From positions 20,460,001 to 20,524,000 of the forward strand of contig OX597818.1 in NCBI GenBank assembly GCA_951406725.2: a stretch of 64,000 bases of DNA, read 5' to 3'. Of the stretch, positions 3,546 to 58,093 are shown piece by piece. A model generated the notes under the pieces. The model made no database searches. It saw only the letters and a program-made list of their open reading frames with translations, and was not told the DNA's origin. This stretch comes from Octopus vulgaris. Its lineage: Eukaryota. The translations under genes and the position numbers were made by a program. How positions within the stretch are numbered: the stretch's first letter is position 1; the number at the start of each line of letters is the position of its first letter.

Positions 3546-4423
<878 letters not shown>

Positions 4424-4664: not shown

Positions 4665-5902
4665 GTCATCCCATTAGTTCTGTCCGAATTTTGAATAAAT
4701 AAAACAAGTGATCAAATGTTATATTTAATTGAAATTTAATCATCAATGTACTTTCCCTGATTATCTATGACTTCCTTCCATCTATTTACAAGCTTTTTAA
4801 TCCCATCAATGTAAAAGTCTTTTGGTTTCAAAGCGAAGAACTCTGAAATGTCACTTTCGGCCTCCTCCTGGCTTGCGAAAGTTATGTCCCCCAAACGATT
4901 CAGTAAACTACGAAATAAATGGTAGTTTGAAGGGGCAAGGTCGGGAGAATGAGGAGGATGAAGAATATTTTCCCAACCAAGCTCTTCGATCTTCTGTGAT
5001 GTGATTTTTTCAGTGTGGGGTCGCGCATTGTCCTGATGAAACATCACTCATTTTCGATTCACTAAAGCGGGTCTATTTTCTTCAAAGACTTGACCATTGA
5101 TTCTTGCATTAGGTGGTAACAATTCAAAGTGAATTACTCCTTTGCAATCCCACCAGATAGAGAGAATAACCTTTTTCCTATGAAGTTCCCTTCTCGGTTG
5201 TGGTTGAACATTTCCCCTGTTTATGACGTTTAACATTTCAATAGAAGATCCATTTTTCGTCACCAGTCACAAGTCTATCCAAAAAGGGTGAAATGAGTTC
5301 ACGAGAATGGAGAGAAGAGCAGATGTCAACTCGGGATTTGCAGTTACTTTCGGACAATTCATGAGGCACCCATTTTCCAAGTTTAGGAACCATTCCAAGT
5401 TGTTGAGAATGACGATGAATAGTTCTATGGTTTGAACTAAGTTCTATTGCCAATTCTTCAACTGATAATGCAGGATTTTCTTCAAGTAATGCCTCAAGGA
5501 GCTTGTCATCAAACTCAACTGGATGTCCTGTTCGATCTTCATCTTCAAGGCTGAAATGTCCACTTCTGAATATTGTAAACCATCTTCTGCAAGTTCTTTT
5601 ATTCAAGCATTCTTTCTCATAAACTGAGTATATGTTTCGAGTCACTTCGGCTGCAGAGTTTCCTTTTTTGTACTCATAAAGCATTATGTGCCTCAAATGC
5701 TCTTTGGATACTTCTATGTTAGAAAGGGTTTTAATCAAAGAAATTTTAATTCTATTATTCTGTAAAATAATATTTAATTAGTTTAAATGTACACAAATAC
5801 ATAAAAATAATTTTAAATCCCATTAGACATTCTAAAATACTATTAAACTTCATTCAATTTTAAAGAAAGGTAAAATCGGACAGAACTTATGGGATGACGT
5901 GA
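4661..5902 (-). mobile_element. Near full-length mariner (DD34D-type) transposon, defective
   Basis: TIRs TCAGGTCATCCCATTAGTTCTGTCCGA / TCGGACAGAACTTATGGGATGACGTGA, flanked by TA, about 1.24 kb. Confidence 0.95.
4736..5738 (-). pseudogene. Mariner transposase pseudogene
   Basis: Motifs WVPHEL, TGDEKW, HQDNARPH and HSPDLAPSNY (third catalytic D changed to N), split over three ORFs by lesions. Confidence 0.93.
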
Positions 5903-6215: not shown

Positions 6216-7005
6216 GTTTATATACACACACACATATACATATATATATATATATACACTCACACACATATACATAGAAATGTGTGTGTGCGTGCATGTG
6301 TGCGTGTGTGCATGTGTGTGTGCGTGTATGTGTGTGTATGCAAATCTCAGATACACGCACACACTCACACACTCACACACTCACATACTCAGATTCTTTG
6401 TTGTTTACACAAGCAGTTCTATCCATTCAGACAAAAACAGTAGCGACCTCTAGCTATCAAAACTGACATGCACCTACATAAACAGTAGCATTTGTTTCTA
6501 TAACCGCTAATTAGTTTATTCACTGCAGCCTACACACACACACACGCACACACACACATATACACACACACACACGTACATACACACATACACAAACATA
6601 CATGCGCAGACATATACGCATCTGCATACAATCACACACGTTCATACACGCATAGCATGGTATTTTCATATTCATTCGAACAGGCACAAACACATACACA
6701 TATATAAAAATAAAATTCTTACGATTAAAATTACAAACACACGCACACATACACACACACACACACACTCATACACACACACACATACACACACACACAC
6801 ACACACACTCATACACACACACACACACAGAGGCATACAGGCAAACGATCATGCGTACATATGCAGATACTTTAAGCATTCATATAAAATATGTAATGCA
6901 CACATGGATAAAAACAGATAAATATACGTGTATGTGTGTGTGTGCGTGTGGTATATATACATATATGTGTGTGTGTGTACATATATGTACACATGCATAT
7001 ATAAA

Positions 7006-7093
<88 letters not shown>

Positions 7094-7110
7094 ATATATA
7101 TATATATATC

Positions 7111-8032
7111 CTGACAGACGATACAAAGAAAACAAGGACAGATCATTCGAAGTTTTCTATGCTCAGTCGAGTTCCAGATTATCTTTGCAATTTCGGCTGG
7201 TTATACTCGAGATTGCTCCAATCTGGCCAGCCCCAAGGAAAAAATAAGCTAAGAGCATTACATTCCTTGGAAGAAAGCAGCGAATATATACGAAAACAAG
7301 AACGGAAAAAAAAGAACAGAGAAATGTTACATAAATAAAAATAACAGGACATAACAACAGGTGTCTTTCGACCAAGGACGAATTAAATTAAGCTGGCGTG
7401 TTTGGAAGTAGAGCCTTACGGCAGGGACACAAGATTTAACAGGCACGGAAGAAATATAGATGTTGCGCGGTAGTCAAACCAAGAAAGGTCAGGCCTGGTC
7501 GAACACCAGTCATGTGGCCTTCTTTTCATGCTCACTTTCCCTCTTTCACTTCACAGTGTCTCTTTCATTTTTTCTCGCCCCTCCTTAATTCTTTTATCCC
7601 TCTGCCTCTACCTCTCTCTCTTATCCCTCCACGTGACCGGTGTTCGACCAGGCCTTACCTTTTCTTTCTTTCTTGGTTTGACTACTGTCTGTGCAACATC
7701 TATATTCCTCTCTGTACCTGTTAAATCTTATGTCTCTACTGTAAGGCTTTTCTTCCATACACGCCAGCTTAATTTAATTCGTCCTTGGTCGAAAGACACC
7801 TGTTATTTGTATTTGTGTAACATTTCTCTGGGTTTTTTCCGTCCTTGTTTTCGTATACATTCGCTGCTTTCTTCCACGGAATGTAATGCGATTAGCTTAT
7901 TTTTTCCTTGGGGCTGGTCAGATTGGAACAATCTCGAGTATAACCAGCCGAAATTGAAAAGATAATCTGGAACTTGATTGAGGATAGAAAACTCCGAATG
8001 ATCCGTCTTTGTTTTCCTTGTATCGTCTGTCT
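7111..8032. repeat. Long imperfect inverted repeat (arms about 400 bp, pyrimidine-rich spacer about 110 bp)
   Basis: 7114-7517 is reverse-complementary to about 7629-8030 (CAGACGATACAAAGAAAACAAGGAC... / ...GTCTTTGTTTTCCTTGTATCGTCTG). Confidence 0.9.
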
Positions 8033-8099
8033 GGATATATTGTTGTTCCTTTTTTGTTTTACATAACTGTCTGGATGTTCTGCGCTTTTGTTCCATTTT

Positions 8100-9625: not shown

Positions 9626-9712
9626 CTACATCCGTGTGTATGTTGTGTATATATATAAGAAATTAAAAAAGGAAAATACGCACACTTACATAGTTTTAAT
9701 ATAATTTTTAAT

Positions 9713-9747
9713 ATATCGACCGGTTTCGCTATCGCTATTCATGATAT
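9713..9747 (-). ncRNA. Minimal type I hammerhead ribozyme motif, A3:U8 variant
   Basis: Reverse strand reads AUAUC-AUGAAUA-GC(GAUA)GC-GAAA-CCGG-UC/GAUAU. Confidence 0.7.
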
Positions 9748-9897
9748 TATGTTTTACTTATTTGAATATATATTTTTTCTTAAGAAGAAATTTGGTCCAT
9801 GTTGTGTGTGATGGAATTCACGAGTGAATTTCATCACACACAACATGGACCAAATTTCTTCTTTAGAAAAAATATATATTCAAATAAGTAAAACATA

Positions 9898-9932
9898 ATA
9901 TCATGAATAGCGATAGCGAAACCGGTCGATAT
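9898..9932 (+). ncRNA. Minimal type I hammerhead ribozyme motif, A3:U8 variant
   Basis: Helix I ATATC/GATAT, core ATGAATA, stem II GC-GATA-GC, GAAA, palindromic ACCGGT, UC cleavage site. Confidence 0.7.
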
Positions 9933-10039
9933 ATTAAAAATTATATTAAAACTATGTAAGCGTGCATATTTTCCTTTTTTAATTTCTTATATACATTATA
10001 ACTCACCACGTGGGGATAATCGAAATTCCTCTTTTCTGT

Positions 10040-14770: not shown

Positions 14771-15255
14771 GTGTATGTCTGTCGTTTTGATTGGCTAGTT
14801 GCTCAGCATTATTTTGTGAGGCTGGTGCTTGTTGATTATTTTCGTGTTGTCACTTTGATATATATATAAAAGCCAGCTTGAAATATCGAAAAAACCCAGG
14901 CCCTTGGTGATGGCACTGGCTTTCAACTCGGGTCGCGAGAAAATGAATTAAATATAAATAAACTGTATGTATGTATGTATGTATGTATGTATGTATGTAT
15001 GTATGTATGTATGTATGTATGTATGTATGTATGTATGCATGTATGTATGTATGTTTAAATGAAGAGAGAGAGTAAAATAGATAGACGGATAGACAGATAT
15101 ACATACGTATATATATATACATCTAATTAGGTGTGTGTGTATATACATACTTCAATATATTATAAAATCCAGCTTAAAATATCGAAAAAGCAGGCCCTTG
15201 GTGAAAACAATTTTGAATGTTATCAAAGTGTGTGGGCACGACGCTAATATGAACA

Positions 15256-15288
<33 letters not shown>

Positions 15289-16160
15289 CAGTCGTAGAAG
15301 TAGTTGTTGTTGTTCTTTTTAGTGATGATGATGATCAAGAAGTCGGTTAGACTCAAGTTCAACTCTCATTTCAGCAGGCACGTAATCAAAGGCATTCCAC
15401 CATTGGCCATCCCGTCTTTTTTAAAGACATCCCTTGTTAAAGATGTTTGGCCTGTGATTTCAGGGGAGACTTAGTTGCCATTTGTCGTAGGAAGAGGAAC
15501 CGCACAGAGACGCCCCTCACTCATTGTAGCCTTTGACGTTATGGACATGTTTGTGAATGTGTGTGTATGTATTGATATATGTATTTGCATGTGTGTGTGT
15601 ATTGTATGTATGTATGTATGTATGTATGTATGTATGTATGTATGTATGTATGTATGTATGTATGTATGTATGAATCTAAACGTTTGACTAGATCTAAGCG
15701 AATGCATGTGAATTTCCTGCCTGTGTTTGTTGATATAATGTTAAATGAATGAGCATGCGTAACTACCGAGGTATGTACGTGTATGTGCGTCTATCTGTGA
15801 TTGTATATATACGCATACCATACTTTGGAGTGGTAACTCTGTGTGTGTGTGTGTTCTTTTTGGAGTGTATACACGTACAGGTGTGCTTGTGAGGTAATGT
15901 ATGTGTCTCTCTAAGTGTCTGCGTGTTTGTACGAAGCATTTAATGGTGGACAGGATGTACGAGAAAGTTAGGAAGAAAATTTTCATTGGCCACAGTGAAA
16001 CGAGGTCAGAGGGTCAGAGTGCGATTGCTTTGGCGAAGGGCTTTTACCATCCCTCTCTCTCTCTCACACACACACTCTCACTCCTCTCTCTCTCTCTCTC
16101 TCTCTCGGTTACTTTCTCCCTCTTCCTCTCCCCTCACAGATACATACATACAAGCGTGCT

Positions 16161-16221
<61 letters not shown>

Positions 16222-16266
16222 TGCATACACAAACGTACATACATACAAATGAGTGTGTGTATACAT

Positions 16267-16297
<31 letters not shown>

Positions 16298-16349
16298 AAT
16301 ATATATATACGCATTTGTGTGTGTATATATATATATGTGTGTGTGTGTA

Positions 16350-16403
<54 letters not shown>

Positions 16404-16426
16404 TATGCTGCGGTGGATAAAAGAGG

Positions 16427-16485
<59 letters not shown>

Positions 16486-16880
16486 GAGATCCCCATGAAA
16501 AAAAACGTCTTGTGTGTATATGTGTGCATGTATATATATATGTCTATACATGTGTATCGCTGTCTGGGTTGTTTGTAGGTTTGTGACGTGACAAGGGAGA
16601 AAATTGACAACAAAGTATAAAGACATAATTTCAATTTGGGCAAGAGAAAAGAAATGACTTCTAAGTGATATGTCCACAATCATATACGCACGCACGCACA
16701 CACACACACACACACATACGCAACACATTTATGTACTACGTACACACGCATGTGTTTGCGTACATCTCTGTCTGAGTTTGTGTGTGTTTTTGTGTGTCTG
16801 TATGTGTGTGCCTGTGTATGTATATGTATGTATGCATATATGTCTTAGTGCATGTGTATTTGTAACTATATACTCGCACA

Positions 16881-16915
<35 letters not shown>

Positions 16916-17307
16916 GTATATACACACACACCTAATTAGATGTATATATATATATACGTATGTATATCTGTCTATCCGTCTATCTATTTTACTCTCTCTT
17001 CATTTAAACATACATACATACATACATACATACATACATACATACATGCATATATACATACATACATACATACATACATACATACATACATACATACATA
17101 CATACATACATACAGTTTATTTATATTTAATTCATTTTCTCGTGACCCGAGTTGAAAGCCAGTGCCATCACCAAGGGCCTGGGTTTTTTCGATATTTCAA
17201 GCTGGCTTTTATATATATATCAAAGTGACAACACGAAAATAATCAACAAGCACCAGCCTCACAAAATAATGCTGAGCAACTAGCCAATCAAAACGGTAGA
17301 CATACAC
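14771..17307. repeat. Near-identical inverted duplication of about 380 bp (14771-15149 vs 16913-17307) around a 1.76 kb spacer
   Basis: For example CACTTTGATATATATATAAAAGCCAGCTTGAAATATCG and its reverse complement at about 17190-17227. Confidence 0.9.
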
Positions 17308-25042: not shown

Positions 25043-25277
25043 ATTAACCGTGGAGAAATTAAGCAGTTCGCAAGCTGGTTCTGCTTCAGCGTCCCCTGTG
25101 ACACATATGTAATGACTCGCTGAATTTGAAAGTGAGAAATCACAACTCAGCCAGTGACTCCAGGAGAAAAACAGCCAAGTGTTGCATTTGTAAATGTGCT
25201 TGCAGAACGGAAGCAGGACAGTCAGGTCACCAGCGTGAACATGGTCGAGTAAGGTCCAACGAAATTATAGCACTCTT
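25043..25277 (-). other. Candidate non-coding exon (235 bp)
   Basis: Strong acceptor TTTCTTCTTTTCAG and donor AAT/GTAAGT, with stops in all three frames. Confidence 0.5.
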
Positions 25278-28394: not shown

Positions 28395-30232
28395 TCAATA
28401 CGTGTGACGTACCAGTTAAGACAATATTTTGCACTTCCTGCATGGATGGTAAGCCAAGAATCATTCTTAAATAGTTTTCAGTTCCTTTTTTTGATCATTC
28501 CAAGTGTTCCTACAATCACTGGTATTGTAATCATCTTGAGATGCCACATCTTTTCGATTTCGATTAGCAAATCTTATATTTTTCGAGCTTATCAAATTCT
28601 TTTGCCGAGATATTATAGCCACAGGGCATGCTCATGTCAATCAATAAACAGACTTTGTTGTTTTGGACTTTCACAACCCAATGTGCCGATACTGCAGCGT
28701 TGGGATAGAAATAGTGGACCGCCTAATCTCTGGATGTAAGGTTGTAGCACCTGTGGATAGTTCGGTCTCTATATACTGAAAAGTCCCAAAGAATAGTTAC
28801 ATTTTCTCACTCAGTTACAACCTCAGGGTAGTGTTTGCACTATCTGTCAGCAGTTTTGATTTTATAAAGCCGGCACATTATCTAATGTAGATATTGGCCA
28901 ACTGTGTCCTGTCTTGATTTGTACTCTATTTGGGTCTATACTATTTTTCATCACATTGGTTCGATAGTTCTGGTTCAATAAGCTCTGATCTTGGACAGCC
29001 AAGATAAAACCTTCACTCACTGCCTTTTAGCCCTGAGCTCCGTAACTACTGATGGGTGTGCTTCTGGTCTACATCAGTTTGTTTCCTATGCAGAGGTTTT
29101 TGTTCCCACCTATCAGCCAATTGTTCAAACGCATTTTGCTTTGCTATTGATTTAACCTTCTTTGCAATTACAGTTGCTGCACTTCCACCATGCTCTTCAA
29201 CCTGGTTATTATGCATAAACTCACTTGAAAATTTTTTCTCTCCTTCATAACAGAGTGAAGCTTCTTACGTCTTTCATGGCTTTCAATGAGCTTTAACATC
29301 CAGTCGTTAGATGTTTCATGATATTTTGCCAGTCCAACTGTGGTGGTTTTGTAGATTTCAAATTGGATCAAGCCTCGACCTCTTTGAGCTCTGAGTAGGT
29401 AAAGACGATCACTATCTGCCTTTTGGTGGTGCACCTTATTGCAAGTCAGCAGTTTACGGATTTTCCTGTCAATCTTCCCTATTTCGCTCATATTCCGGCT
29501 CAACACATTGAAACTATAAATAACAACCAGAACTGCTTAGGAATTTATAGCTAACACGTTGTTACGTGCATTTAACTCGGATTTTAGGACTGCTCGATCT
29601 CTCCTGTAACACTCCTTCCTGATCTTCTCTTTCATGCTTGCACGCTGAATGCCAGAGCCCTCATTTATTCCGAGGTATTTGTAGGTTTGTTCCTGCTCGA
29701 GTTCTTTTATGATTGTGTCAACACCCACCACCAGTGTATGTGAGGTTTTCAATTTCCCTCTCTGGAAAGTGGCTATGGCACACTTATCAAGACCAAATTC
29801 CATCCCGATGTCATCACTGAATACTTTCAAAGTACGCAGTAGTCCTTCAAGCTCATTAACGTTTTTGCCACAGGGTTTTAAGTCATCCATATAAAATAGA
29901 CGACTTATTTTCTTGTTGCCAACTTTATATCCATACCCTATTCTGTTAGGTTCACTTGTAAGGGGTATTAGGGCTATGTAGTAAATTAAAGGTGTGAGTC
30001 ACCTTGCAAAATACCGCAGTTAATATTAATATCTTTTGTGGTCACTACTCCATTAGAGTGATATAACTGGAGATTCATATTCGACATTGATTTGTTGTGT
30101 TTCAGGAAGTTTGAAATCACAGGAGAAATTTCAAAGATGCCCAGATCATGAATACGGTATGCTGTCGAAGGCCTTTTTATAATCAATCCATGCAGAACTG
30201 AGATTTTATTCTTGCTTCGGTATTTTGACAAA
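28395..30232 (-). mobile_element. Degraded R4/Dong-like RLE LINE (RT and RLE remnants)
   Basis: GILQGDS, LFYMDDLK, DIGMEFGLDKCA, YKYLG, RLYLLRAQRGRGL and ILWDF, with many stops and frameshifts. Confidence 0.9.
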
Positions 30233-41083: not shown

Positions 41084-41220
41084 GTTTTTTACTGAGGAAC
41101 GCCAGTTTATGGGGTTACCCTGGGTTTCCTGTCCATAAAGGGTATAACTTTATGGCGTATCGTCAAAGCCCAAGACCTGATAGCCTAAAACCTTTCGCAC
41201 TCTCTCTCTCTTTATATATA

Positions 41221-41297
<77 letters not shown>

Positions 41298-41434
41298 CGG
41301 AGATGTATTTGCATAGCAAGTGACTTGATCTGAGATCGTGTGCTGGAACGAACACAATTGCAGCGTGGAAGGTGTTTATAAGCCATTTAAGAAACACGCG
41401 AAACCGTTAGATTCACTTCAACATATAAATTGAA

Positions 41435-41485
41435 TTTGTCAAAATATTTTCGTCGCTTTGAGACCGCGACCTGTTCACTGACAAA
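41435..41485 (-). ncRNA. Minimal type I hammerhead ribozyme motif, G3:C8 variant
   Basis: Reverse strand reads UUUGUCA-GUGAACA-G-GUCGC(GGUCUCAAA)GCGAC-GAAA-AUAU-UU/UGACAAA. Confidence 0.72.
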
Positions 41486-41505
41486 ACTTCGTGCTGCATC
41501 GAAGT

Positions 41506-41555
41506 TTTGTCAGTGAACGGTCGCGTCCTCAAAGCGACGAAAATATTTTGACAAA
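41506..41555 (+). ncRNA. G3:C8 hammerhead motif lacking A9 (probably damaged copy)
   Basis: TTTGTCA-GTGAACG-GTCGC(GTCCTCAAA)GCGAC-GAAA-ATAT-TT-TGACAAA. Confidence 0.55.
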
Positions 41556-41631
41556 TTAAATTTAAATGTTGAAGTGAATCTAACAGTTTTATGTGTTTCT
41601 TAAATGACTTATAAACACCTTCCACGCTGCA

Positions 41632-41681
<50 letters not shown>

Positions 41682-41800
41682 GATATATGTATATATATGT
41701 AGATATATGTAGATATATGTATATATATGTATATATATATATATGTATATATATATGTATATATATATATATGTATATATATATGTATATATATGTATAT

Positions 41801-42132
41801 ATATTAATAGTTATCGCCATACTAATATGGCAGTCTATAAACATAAGATTAAAGCTGTCGCTGATTAGCTCCAAGAGGCCATCGCCTCTAGCTAGCTATA
41901 TGACACACGAACCTGCGTCCATTACAACCTTCGAACAGGGGTGGTCAGCCGCTTCACCTTGCTAGTCAGACATCTGCAGACATGTTTCAATGCAGCGTTC
42001 GAAGGTTGTAATGAACGCAGGTTCGTCTGTCATATAGCTAGCTAGAGGCGATGGCCTCTTGGAGCTAATCAGCGACAGCTTTAGTCTTATGTTTATAGAC
42101 TGCCATATTAGTATGGCGATAACTATTAATAT
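41801..42132. repeat. Near-perfect inverted repeat (arms about 136 bp, spacer about 60 bp)
   Basis: ATATTAATAGTTATCGCCATACTAATATGGCAG... / ...CTGCCATATTAGTATGGCGATAACTATTAATAT. Confidence 0.9.
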
Positions 42133-44681: not shown

Positions 44682-46438
44682 ATTCAGTAGTTTTATTTTT
44701 ATAGCGTGCTTTCACTTCACTACCGAGCGCAGCTCTGTGTGCCTTGGGTATGTGCTGTGATTTGTTGTGATGCTCTGATGGTTATTGTATGGAAAGTGTT
44801 CTGCGTAGGATGTGTGCAGTGCCTAGTAGTGCAATTTTCTGTATGTTATATGTGTTTGTAAGTCCTGGTGTTTTTGTTATGTATTTGTCTGAATATTTTT
44901 TTATCATGCCTAATGCACCTACTATGATAGGAATTGTTTCTGTTTTCAGATTCCACATTCTAGTTACCTCTATTTCCAGGTCTTTGTATTTTGAGAGTTT
45001 CTCCATTTCTTTTAGAGACACGTTGTCATCAGCCGGTATTGATACATCAATTAGAAAGCATTTTTTTCCTTCATGGTCTCTGACAACTATATCTGGTCTG
45101 TTGGCCTTAATTTCTCTGTCTGTGTGTATCGGCATATCCCAGAGTATGGTTGCTTTCTCGTTTTCTGTGACCTTTTCTGGTGTGTGCCTATACCATCTTT
45201 TTTCTGTTGTTATTCCATAATGTTGGCATAGCTTCCAATGTATGTAGGTTCCAACTCTGTCATGTCTGTGAATATATTCCTTCTTAGCCAGGACTGGGCA
45301 GCTAAAGATAATATGATTTATTGTTTCTTGTCCATCTCCACATATTCTGCAGTTACTTGTAATATTTCTTTTCATTAGATGTTTTTGGTAATTTCTGGTG
45401 GGGAGGCTTTGGTCTTGTGCTGCAATTAAAAATCCCTCTGTTTCTGCTTTGAGTCCTGAGCTTCTCAACCATTGCTGGGATTTTTCTTTGTCTATTTCTT
45501 TTGCGTTTAGTTTAGTCCAGTATTTACCATGAAGGGGCTTTTCTTGCCATCATTTTATCATGGTTCGTTGCTGTTCTATTTTTAGTTTGGATTTCATTTG
45601 TTTTATAGCTTTTGTTGTTTCTTCATCTTCTTCTTCTTCTTCATGTTTATTAGGTGGTATGATTTCTTGTTTGTATTTGTCAGCTTCCTTAAATACTGAG
45701 AACAGTTTTTTGTTTTGCTCGTGTTTTGCCGCTATTTGTATCAGTTTTCCTTCCTTCTGAAGTAGATATTTTTGCAGTCCTACGGTGGTTATTTTATAGT
45801 AGTTTTCCAGCTGTATAAGGCCTCTACCACCATCTATACGTTGTATATATAGCCTTTCTATGTCAGATTTTGGGTGATGCATCCTAGACCCTGTCATTAT
45901 TTTTCTTGTTTTCCTATCTATTTTGGTCAGTTCATTTAGTGTCCAGTTAAGGATATTGTAGCTGTAACTTATAACTGGGACGGCTAAAGTGTTGATACCT
46001 ATTATCTTGTTTTTAGCATTGAGCTCTGTTTTCAGCATTGATCTAACTCGTCTATAATATTCTTTTTTTATTTTCTCTTTTATTTGTGTGTGTTGTGTCT
46101 TATCTAGTTCATGGATTCCTAAGTATTTGTAAGTTTGGCTTTGGTCTAATTCTTTTATTTCATTGGTTTTATTTAGTGTGATGTTGCTACTCTTAACTAG
46201 TTTTCCTCTTTTCATGGTTACTTCGGCGCATTTTTCTAATCCAAATTTCATATCTATTTCTTTGGTAAATCCATGAACTGTCTTTAGTAGTGTTTCCAGC
46301 TGTTTGTCATTTGTAGCGTATAGTTTTAGGTCGTCCATATATAAAAGGTGGCTGATCGTTTTGCCGTAACATTTATATCCGCATCCAGTTCTGTTTAGCA
46401 TATCCGAAAGAGGTGACAGTGCCAAGCAGAAAAGGAGT
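44682..46438 (-). mobile_element. 5'-truncated R4/Dong-clade non-LTR retrotransposon in a (TAA)n array
   Basis: RT YMDD, CCHC finger CRIC..ETINHI..C, RHD, RLE RPDIV..IDVS..K..KY, short 3' UTR then (TAA)n. Confidence 0.95.
44782..46437 (-). pseudogene. R4/Dong RT-ZnF-RLE ORF fragment with a single in-frame stop
   Basis: ORFs 45550-46425 and 44782-45468 share one frame, interrupted only by TGA at 45550-45552 (IK*WQEKPLHG). Confidence 0.92.
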
Positions 46439-46485
46439 TGTTGTTGTTGTTGTTGTTGTTGTTATCATCATCATCATCATCATCA

Positions 46486-47513: not shown

Positions 47514-47614
47514 AACAACAAACGAGATGAGGACAAATATCCGTCAAATGTAAATAATGTACATAATTATTTTTATTGTTGTCGTTGTTGTTACTGTTGT
47601 TATTATTATTATTA

Positions 47615-47870
47615 ATCAACTCGTTAACTATTTAACCAATTAACTAACCTATTGCTTGATTAATCGTTCGATCCATCAAACTGCTTGGTTTGTTAAAGTC
47701 ATTTCGTCGCCATTCGTAACCTGATCAATAAAATGCTTTCGCTACTCGGCAAATGGAGACGAAAGGACTCTGACGAACCAAATCGATTGGTTGATCGAAT
47801 GATTAATCAAGTAATCGATTAATTAATTGCTTAGATGTTTAATTAGTTAACTAATAATAATAAAAGAGCT
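47615..47870. repeat. Old imperfect inverted repeat / MITE-like
   Basis: ATTGCTTGATTAATCGTTCGATC vs GATCGAATGATTAATCAAGTAAT, and TTTCGTCGCCATT vs AATGGAGACGAAA. Confidence 0.65.
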
Positions 47871-48326: not shown

Positions 48327-48460
48327 TGGAATCGAACTCGGAATCTTGAAGTTATTAGTCCGCGCTCTTAACCACTACGCCATATGCCTGTGGCGTAGTG
48401 GTTAAGAGTGCGGGCTACTAACTTCAAGATTCCGAGTTCGGTTCCAGGCAGTGACCTGAA
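48327..48460. mobile_element. Two back-to-back tRNA-like SINE heads forming a hairpin
   Basis: TGGCGTAGTGGTTAAGAGTGCGGGCTACTAACTTCAAGATTCCGAGTTCGGTTCCA (48391-48446) and its inverted copy at 48327-48382. A- and B-box-like sequences present. Confidence 0.75.
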
Positions 48461-54140: not shown

Positions 54141-54167
54141 TACATATATTATATTATATTATATTTT

Positions 54168-54667
54168 ATTAAGAGCAGTACAACACGTAAATGCCTCACG
54201 CTATGAAGGATTCTTAAAGTCAAAAGTACCATAATAAATATATAGTGTATCGGCAGCGAGGGAATGCAACTTAGAAATCGCCTCTTAAAAACCGATTCAG
54301 CCGCAAATCATATGATTTCAAAGTTAGTGTACATAATTCATTTTCTAATAGTCACCGCAGGCATAATCAAGTCATAAAAATGAACACAATTCAGCATACC
54401 AGACGAACACTAAATGTATCCAAAACAGCGCATAGAAATGTTGAATTTTGTTCATTTTTATGTGTCTTGATTATGATTGCACTGACGATTAGAAAGTGGA
54501 TTATGTACACGAACTTTGAAATCATATGATTTGCGGCTGAATCGGTTTTTAAGAGGTGACTTCCAAATTGCATTCCCTCGCTGTCAGTACACTGTGTATT
54601 TATTATGGTAGTTTTGACTTTAAGAGTCTCTCACAGCATGAGGCATTTACATGTAGTAATGCCTTAA
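54168..54667. mobile_element. Palindromic element (arms about 230 bp) with a hammerhead-like motif in each arm
   Basis: Arms 54168-54397 and 54438-54667. The plus arm reads GCA-CTGACGA-TTAG-AAAGT..ACTTT-GAAA-TCATATGA-TT-TGC. Confidence 0.7.
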
Positions 54668-54778
54668 ATATAATAAATGTATTTAAAGGGAATAATTATA
54701 AATTTTTCCCTTATATGGTTTTCAAGCTGACTACTTAAAACTTTCTTATATAGATTTTATCCTATATTCAATTTCAAA

Positions 54779-56874: not shown

Positions 56875-58093
56875 CACAGAGTGCGATGGGTAAATTGTCG
56901 CCATTTTATACTTTTATTTCGCTTATGCGCATTGTTTGTTATTGATTTTGTTGACTACACAGTATGGTAGGGTCAGTTGGGCACCGTCTGTGTGAAAAAC
57001 AGCACCATGATGCAATTCACTCTGCTACAAATTTTGAAACGATATGCTGCACTGCTTGGCATTCGCGCCAGGAACTCCAATACGAACATTTCAGGGAGTT
57101 TGGGTGTCAAAATGGGGACAATGCATTGGATTCGGCAAGAGTTGGATGAGTCTAATGGTGATTAAGAAAGTACGGCTGCACGAAAAACTCACTTTGATCA
57201 TTCTGATACGAAAAGAGATCCAGGCCATGATTGACAACGATTTCTCCAAGTTAATCAGGTCCATCGCCAGGAATATGGGAGTGACTAAGTTTCTTATCAG
57301 GTAGGTAGTGCATGAAGACATTCGGTATTCCTCATACAAAATGAGAAAGGGCCACTTTTTATCCCAAGAGATCAAGGACAAGAGTTGAAGACAGCGCTAA
57401 GAAGCTTTTGAACAAACTCGAGCATTCCCTCCAACCGAACATGCTTTGCTTTTTCTCAGACGAGAAAAAATTCTACCAGGATCAGATGAACACACAGAAC
57501 GACCGTTGGCTTGCCGTGTCCCCAAAACATGTACCTAGAATGATAAAAAGCAAACCTCCAATCAACATCATGGTATTTGGAGTGATCACTAGTGATGGCG
57601 ACGTTATGCCTCGATTCATCTTCCCACACGGCCTCAAACTCAACACGGAGGCCTACATCAAGTACCTGGAGGAGGTAGTGCTGCCCTGGGTCAAGCGGGT
57701 GGCTAATGGAAGATTCTATGTCTGGCAACATGCCGCACAAGCAAGAGAACTCAGTCATGCCTGTTAGACAATTTCTGCGACTAGATCACACCTAACATCT
57801 GGCCACTAACTCCCCAGATTGCAACTCCCTTGATTATGATGTGTGGGGCGCAGTTGAGCGAGAGACCAACAAAACTCCTTGTAACATCAAAGATCAACTG
57901 AAAGAAAGGATTATGGCAGCATTCACCAACTTAAACAAGGAGAACGTCCAGAAGAACTACAGGAGATTCCGAAGTTGTCTGGAGGTCGTGGTTGAAGCCA
58001 ATGGCGATTTTATTTAATAAATTTATTCCTTTGTATTTCAAGATACTTTTATGTAATTTTGGTAAATATATCTGTTAATGAGTTGTCAGTGTT
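56875..58093 (+). mobile_element. maT/DD37D-like Tc1/mariner transposon relic
   Basis: FFSDEKKF, NTQNDRW, MVFGVITSDG, YVWQ and NSPDCNSLDYDVWG, with frameshifts and stops. Right TIR not seen. Confidence 0.85.

Follow-up and report, generated by a model that had tools for sequence, protein, structure and literature searches.

A window of 64,000 nucleotides from the genome of Octopus vulgaris (2.8 Gb), made up of microsatellite-rich animal DNA, contains a palindromic insertion whose arms carry a hammerhead-like motif with an exchanged core pair. C3:G8 is the general hammerhead consensus, and G8 belongs to the residues that hammerheads conserve most; the motif at this locus has G3 and C8. This raises the question of what kind of element carries such a core, and whether the core is a selected variant, possibly still able to cut, or the remainder of a ribozyme that has died. 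Judged from comparisons among genomic copies and related families, it is a real, selected and family-wide G3:C8 variant of the minimal hammerhead of Penelope-like elements (PLEs), residing in an ordinary PLE insertion.

The insertion and its retroelement family

The insertion, assigned to family A, spans 340 bp inside (TA)n (41297..41636, without a strand of its own) and comprises a 283-bp palindrome and a 57-nt tail, which together represent two inverted pLTR copies and the tail that a Penelope-like (Neptune-like) retroelement leaves on insertion. Its (TA)n microsatellite target forms the left flank (41213..41296) and the right flank (about 41637-41800). Sense arm 1, on the minus strand (41354..41500), extends from the element RNA's 5' end, with a presumed start near 41500, to the shorter 3' end point, and the tail (41297..41353, minus strand) lies between two preferred 3' end points, the putative RT start sites. 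Sense arm 2, on the plus strand (41500..41636), is an inverted second copy, 92% identical, which begins about 8 nt later and lacks the tail. The first 30 codons of the element ORF occupy 41297..41386 on the minus strand, with the ATG at 41386-41384, and the reading frame from this ATG continues into a long ORF in another copy (L302) and matches the N-terminus of the sister families. Since the tail end holds the first 30 ORF codons, the hammerhead motif falls in the 5' UTR and is noncoding, with the ATG located 55 nt downstream of the predicted cut.

A genome search returned 3,504 first-look candidates, of which 40 were scored and 30 fetched, and one 27-mer spanning the cut site occurs 3,077 times in the genome as an exact match. 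The anatomy of 41297-41636 is common to 30 of 30 aligned top copies, which are 91-94% identical to it. TA repeats hold 19 of the 30 top family A copies, while exact target duplications of 12-14 bp flank nine of the 11 family A copies outside (TA)n. Other copies consist of single arms, have different inversion points, or extend upstream into a microsatellite-rich 3' UTR and ORF. The preliminary description spoke of a palindromic element; the palindrome is nothing special, being the shape, inverted pLTRs plus a tail, in which Penelope-like elements ordinarily insert.

The nature of this element is indicated by its partner long copies, which encode an RT (YVDD) and, at the C-terminus, a GIY-YIG domain (PF01541, E 1.8e-5) and carry the same motif in their pLTRs. 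The copy L139 has an open frame of 1025 aa with YVDD and PF01541, and no Pfam RT model matched this ORF. The linker before the endonuclease reads C-X3-C-X2-C in L139 and C-X4-C-X2-C in L146, both fitting the Neptune pattern CX2-5CxxC. A single ORF with RT and C-terminal GIY-YIG, a pLTR, inverted copies, a tail at one end and AT-rich targets were all found, and the hammerhead is located in the pLTR of this RT-endonuclease element, before the ORF. Because the partners combine RT with GIY-YIG, and because the tail and the inverted copies fit PLE anatomy as published (PMC11167929, PMC8557442), the sequences identify the element as an endonuclease-positive PLE; by its linker, as described in PMC8557442, it appears Neptune-like. 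The closest named protein relative is labelled Octopus vulgaris. Pfam gave no match for three fragments of the long copy L075, a PDB sequence search gave no match, and a metagenome scan for related elements yielded two short loci without a pLTR. A MITE or foldback DNA transposon was rejected as the identity of the insertion, being ruled out by the asymmetric tail, the 12-14 bp target-site duplications and the RT-GIY-YIG partner.

Long family A copies with microsatellite-rich 3' UTRs (L061-L076) are concentrated on contig C16, at about 5-16 and 43-50 Mb, unlike the short copies, which occur genome-wide. Five loci on contig C1 (L195, L196, L207, L209 and L210) have one inversion junction and the start of the right flank in common, which suggests secondary amplification of a single insertion. 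Within the window, further palindromic or inverted insertions lie in or near TA/TAA repeats (41806-42130, 9649-9996, 3572-4322, 7104-8040, 54162-54675, 48327-48446, 47603-47863 and 14771-17307), some of them with one-sided tails, and are probably inverted ends of other retroelements; type I descriptors found no hammerhead in them. The window also holds ORF remnants at 5238-5777, 57345-57767, 29168-29998 and 44782-46461, which we take to resemble mariner/Tc1 transposases and non-LTR RTs.

The exchanged 3:8 pair and selection on the fold

The minus strand at 41435..41485 bears an intact minimal type I hammerhead motif. Its 7-bp helix I pairs 41485-41479 with 41441-41435, and its 5-bp stem II, closed by a 9-nt loop, pairs 41470-41466 with 41456-41452; GAAA follows at 41451-41448, then the palindromic helix III at 41448-41443, with the predicted cut between 41442 and 41441. 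The core strand (41471..41478, minus strand) reads G3 (41478), U4, G5, A6, A7, C8 (41473) and A9 plus one extra G (41471), and AUAU and UU come after GAAA. The layout first proposed for the minus strand from 41485 to 41435 (7-bp helix I, 5-bp stem II, GAAA, AUAU, UU) is thus borne out, and the family consensus contains the same GAAA/UH arrangement. A 10-nt palindrome, also described earlier, is present; as helix III, however, just its central 6 nt, from A15.1 to U16.1, are usable, since the outer pairs would take A13/A14 and U17/U1.1. The second motif, on the plus strand (41506..41555), is damaged in the way first reported: G3 (41513) and C8 (41518) are kept, one base is missing at A9, and loop II differs by two changes. 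These alterations are absent from the family majority, and the loss of A9 is private decay.

In the 64-kb window, 41435-41485 is the sole match to a generic type I descriptor that allows any Watson-Crick 3:8 pair, and one of two matches to a relaxed descriptor. The 51-nt motif is predicted to fold into helix I and stem II with z = -2.5 (two of 200 shuffles as stable), and a 71-nt version with flanks gives z = -0.7. No hammerhead was among the 12 Rfam matches at E<=10 in 41380-41620, a search uncalibrated against a canonical minimal motif, and microsatellite hairpins alone appeared among the 150 matches listed, of 422, for the whole window. Family A has U4 G5 A6 A9, G12 A13 A14, A15.1-U16.1 and H17, together with G10.1-C11.1, the extra base after A9, helix I and stem II. 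Its core strand departs from CUGANGA (C3:G8) and retains a Watson-Crick 3:8 pair, so that by sequence features the motif classes as a variant of the PLE minimal type I hammerhead, not as a canonical member. U17 is found in 3,077 family A arms, against 66 without it. The resulting UUU triplet had been called normally weak; U17 is not exceptional: by our count, 24 of the 56 motifs in Fig. S3 of Cervera and de la Pena (PMC4209133) have it, a likeness between family A and the PLE minimal type I hammerheads. When transcribed through both arms, the insertion folds in prediction into one hairpin of -211.6 kcal/mol; for this reason the copy at 41297-41636 probably cannot work in place.

The exchange of C3/G8 for G3/C8, correctly recognized at the outset as an exact inversion, is fixed in the family and kept under selection. 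G3:C8 occurs in 54 of 60 arms from the top copies, in 41 of 45 arms chosen by downstream sequence and in 11 of 11 beside long ORFs, all counts covering anchor-matching arms only. Sixteen genomic arms are changed at both positions 3 and 8, one of them carrying C3:G8 and none U3:A8, and a subfamily with a canonical core was not found among the genomic arms of family A. Contigs of three other organism labels have no alternative letter at >=5% at core positions. Between the older majority and the young subfamily, none of 42 structured positions differs, compared with 12 of 73 non-structured ones (5/9 in loop II and 7/64 elsewhere), giving a Fisher p of 0.004, or 0.04 without loop II. This disparity, along with covariation across families, leads to the conclusion, drawn from the alignments, that the hammerhead fold is under selection.

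The cross-family evidence comes from a search with the N-terminal protein segment, in which 40 of 148 matches were fetched. In four related families (B, C, E and F) the motif occupies the same position ahead of the ATG, with proteins across the five families about 55% identical or less and with different flanks. Family B has C3:G8 in 14 of 15 but C9 in 14 of 15, and family F is fully canonical, with C3:G8 in 21 of 25, A9, and C17 in 24 of 25. U3:A8 characterizes family C (24/27), while family E is divided between the unpaired C3-A8 (9/16) and U3:A8 (6/16). U17 is present in families C and E and in young B. All sister motifs keep U4 G5 A6, the extra G of the core, G10.1-C11.1 and GAAA; two stem II pairs are changed on both sides across families in a compensatory manner, and the sequences of helices I and III vary yet stay complementary or palindromic. 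In seven hand-picked representative rows, 41 of 42 cells are paired, with a covariation score of 0.54 that none of 500 shuffles reached and slid controls of <=0.14, the control ignoring relatedness. The covariation at 3:8 is not strict, given C3-A8 in family E and the absence of A9 in family B. Damaged-looking cores of these two kinds have therefore spread well in the clade, family E reaching about 1,900 first-look candidates despite its mostly unpaired 3:8.

FastTree, applied to the long protein alignment, joins family A to B plus C/E as their sister (support 1.0), and an N-terminal-only tree gives its position a support of 0.09; family F appears only in the latter, grouping with B. As C3:G8 is the general consensus, G3:C8 was probably derived on the long branch leading to family A.

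Several observations on the sister families stand beside this. The cores of family E loci L321-L345 are polymorphic for C3-A8 and U3:A8, possibly a surviving intermediate of a pair exchange. L146, L150 and L151 represent a very young family B, in which many ORFs, about 1,310 aa long and containing a long Asn/Ser-rich insert, are nearly intact and segments are 99% identical. Other minimal hammerheads occur nearby, at about 8344 (plus strand) in L151 and in L143, L155 and L283, one of which has U3:A8 and CATG as helix III, two have cores with U4 changed to C, and others are canonical.

Template and ends of the copies

The ends of the arms indicate how the copies might be made. Among 30 unselected arms, 16 have the full tail and 12 terminate at the short end point. 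Within arm pairs, 32 deviations are shared and 187 are confined to a single arm, in 3,829 positions, and the shared deviations imply that both arms derive from one template. It follows that agreement between the arms does not date the swap, as had been supposed when it was said to predate the inversion; the swap is older than the insertion, and it is the family data that establish this.

At the 5' side, 51 short arms extend as far as the inferred start, and 33 of them begin with an extra G where long copies have C or T (loci L001-060, L109-138 and L159-248, with L031-060 picked by a pattern starting at the inferred start). The base before this G varies (T15, C9, A7, G2), and up to nine of the 33, those preceded by C, may derive from the opposite arm. 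In L1, an extra G is described as a mark of capped templates (PMC11702581). Since the majority of short arms begin with an extra G, as expected for capped RNA, the template of family A copies looks capped and uncut. A spliced first exon as the source of the extra G is disfavoured, because the preceding base varies. The sequence just before the inferred start (L075 at about 6262-6283 and the L139 pLTR) fits a branch point plus YAG splice acceptor, and also an initiator, the acceptor-like YAG being CAG in the old and TAG in the young subfamily. Drosophila Penelope has an intron at the corresponding place, according to PMC2377424. Contigs of four presumed-RNA runs contained no splice joint at the acceptor-like site, a result that is not evidence on expression.

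If cut RNA were copied, junctions would pile up at the cut, and no such pile-up was found. Copy 5' ends at the predicted cut number about 29 (13/30 x 66), against 32 (9/30 x 105) at a control site 19 nt downstream of the cut, and about 23 (6/30 x 115) lie one base after the cut; these are small samples with unmatched denominators, in which some cut-site rows are homology-driven rearrangements.

A route consistent with these ends would begin with two nicks, made by the RT-endonuclease 12-14 bp apart, one in each strand of an AT-rich target. From each of them reverse transcription would then be primed at either of two positions inside the capped transcript, about 147 and 204 nt from its start, and both cDNAs would pass through the uncut hammerhead to the RNA 5' end before being joined, producing a palindrome and a tail. 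The genomic copies support internally primed insertion into both strands with capped, uncut RNA as the template, and so carry over to another clade what was observed in vitro with a lizard Poseidon element. That element, PAc of Anolis (PMC11167929), resembles family A, as predicted here from sequence, in having two internal RT start sites that bound a tail, nicking and extension of both strands, AT-rich targets, an uncut RNA template and a protein-assisted hammerhead. In the account given there, PAc has C3:G8 by nature, an ORF that begins within the hammerhead and a tail of 30-40 nt, whereas family A has the natural swap, an ATG 55 nt after the cut, a 57-nt tail and a Neptune-type linker.

Possible functions of the motif and known relatives

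The moderately probable reading, and the one preferred here, is that of a PLE inverted end-repeat insertion whose 5' UTR carries a selected, natural G3:C8 hammerhead; this is likely a slowly acting ribozyme, for which cutting would require dimerization and the help of protein. Chemically, G3:C8 would keep the Watson-Crick pair that positions the 2'-OH of residue 8, and the 6-bp palindromic helix III would form only between two RNAs. In the predicted fold G3 pairs with U17, an extension of helix I that gains 1.3 kcal/mol, where G3-C17 would gain 3.5; U17 would thus limit a G3-N17 mispair that C17 would strengthen, and may have allowed G3. The G3-C17 pair mirrors the C3-G17 trap considered in PMC3884650. 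Against the reading, the 6-bp duplex of helix III on its own is marginal at -0.2 kcal/mol, whereas a 10-bp version, which would use up bases of the core, reaches -3.8. Engineered C3G/G8C is described as partly restoring hammerhead cleavage (PMC8495972), and in the Anolis PLE hammerhead the same engineered pair was partly active, cleavage occurring only with protein present (PMC11167929). Low activity may be favoured, since cutting would separate the cap from the ATG and block translation.

The main rival, less likely, holds that the fold is selected but no longer cuts, serving as an RT binding site or as a control element of the 5' UTR, with G3:C8 a tolerated leftover. The absence of an excess of copies starting at the predicted cut and the span of most short copies across the motif up to the cap-like G agree with it, as do the sister families with C3-A8 or C9. 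So do the reports that PLE hammerheads are dispensable for insertion in vitro, mutants of the Anolis hammerhead having left it unaffected (PMC11167929), and that Naiads thrive without canonical hammerheads (PMC8557442). However, U4, G5, A6, G12, A13, A14, A15.1 and U16.1 are unchanged across five families with such divergent proteins, a Watson-Crick 3:8 is the majority state in four of the five, and family F retains the entire canonical core with C17, all of which count against a purely structural role.

A neutral relic, in which ribozyme function was lost along the long branch leading to family A and G and C arose by two chance transversions, is improbable. A random pair is Watson-Crick one quarter of the time, and the route to G3:C8 requires an unpaired intermediate, a state that family E shows can spread; yet structured positions are spared between subfamilies, helix I, stem II and helix III are still perfect, and the core is uniform in the contigs of the three other organism labels. 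Most improbable is that the palindromic unit itself functions as a two-arm ribozyme dimer, or is a foldback transposon with a chance motif, as the thousands of short, near-perfect inverted repeats in TA repeats might suggest: the arms lie on opposite strands, leaving one sense motif per transcript, buried in the hairpin, so that the dimer is rejected, and a retroelement is indicated by the occurrence of single arms, by inversion points that vary, by the asymmetry of the tail, by duplications of 12-14 bp and by long copies that encode RT.

Returning to the slow, dimer-dependent ribozyme, a broader extension can be offered tentatively and is rather doubtful. The clade may have sampled C3:G8, U3:A8, G3:C8 and C3-A8 to throttle the ribozyme, G3:C8 being an active core that needs a base other than C at position 17, and an RT dimer, priming both target strands, might join two RNAs and so switch on the dimeric ribozyme. 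If this is true, G3:C8 families would constitute a class missed by CUGANGA-based searches.

The work of Lunse et al. 2017 is, by its title, reportedly a catalogue of PLE hammerhead variants, which may already contain G3:C8, and it lies outside the literature surveyed here. Within the accessible text of that literature (including PMC4209133, PMC3088659 and PMC6765202), a natural G3:C8 was not found, only the engineered mutant. The nearest relatives, the PLE minimal type I hammerheads (PMC4209133), share with family A the position in a pLTR before the ORF, the extra nucleotide between 9 and 10.1, G10.1-C11.1, a palindromic helix III needing a dimer, and mostly solo or inverted copies. By our own count, the 56 motifs of Cervera and de la Pena 2014 (Fig. 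S3, PMC4209133) comprise 53 with C3, three with U3 and none with G3; the natural covariation described there is U3-A8, and Perreault et al. 2011 (PMC3088659) likewise give U3:A8 as the only natural compensatory 3:8 change in the portion available, both differing from the G3:C8 of family A. Neptune and Nematis EN+ PLEs (PMC8557442) are alike in the C-terminal GIY-YIG, the CX2-5CxxC linker, (TA)n targets, inverted 5'-truncated tailed copies and the pLTR hammerhead, family A being likened to them by features, not by a tree. Since its core is not CUGANGA, family A would be missed by the CUGANGA descriptor quoted in that source. Metazoan non-LTR retrozymes, as presented in bioRxiv 10.64898/2026.07.22.740005, are likewise short noncoding PLE-derived repeats with a type I hammerhead, but form head-to-tail arrays, while family A copies of this kind are pLTR pieces, solo or inverted, that are scattered and include the start of an ORF. 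A non-LTR retrozyme was also tried as an identity and rejected, no head-to-tail array of a short unit being present in 48 mapped loci.

Standard descriptors evidently undercount hammerheads. A natural G3:C8 family of thousands of copies, accompanied by four orthologous families with other 3:8 states, provides a ready-made allelic series that could test how far the identity of the base at position 8 matters and whether the ribozyme is necessary to Penelope-like elements. The impact is bounded, as both the ribozyme, of which this is a variant, and its setting are known, and as cleavage is a prediction.

Elsewhere in the window, the core GTGAACA recurs on the plus strand at 25235-25275, followed by an extra base, by a stem II that has decayed and by GAAA; a TA repeat lies about 55 nt further on. 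Its sequence is unrelated to family A and to every fetched locus, and it may represent a different G3:C8 family in a worn state.
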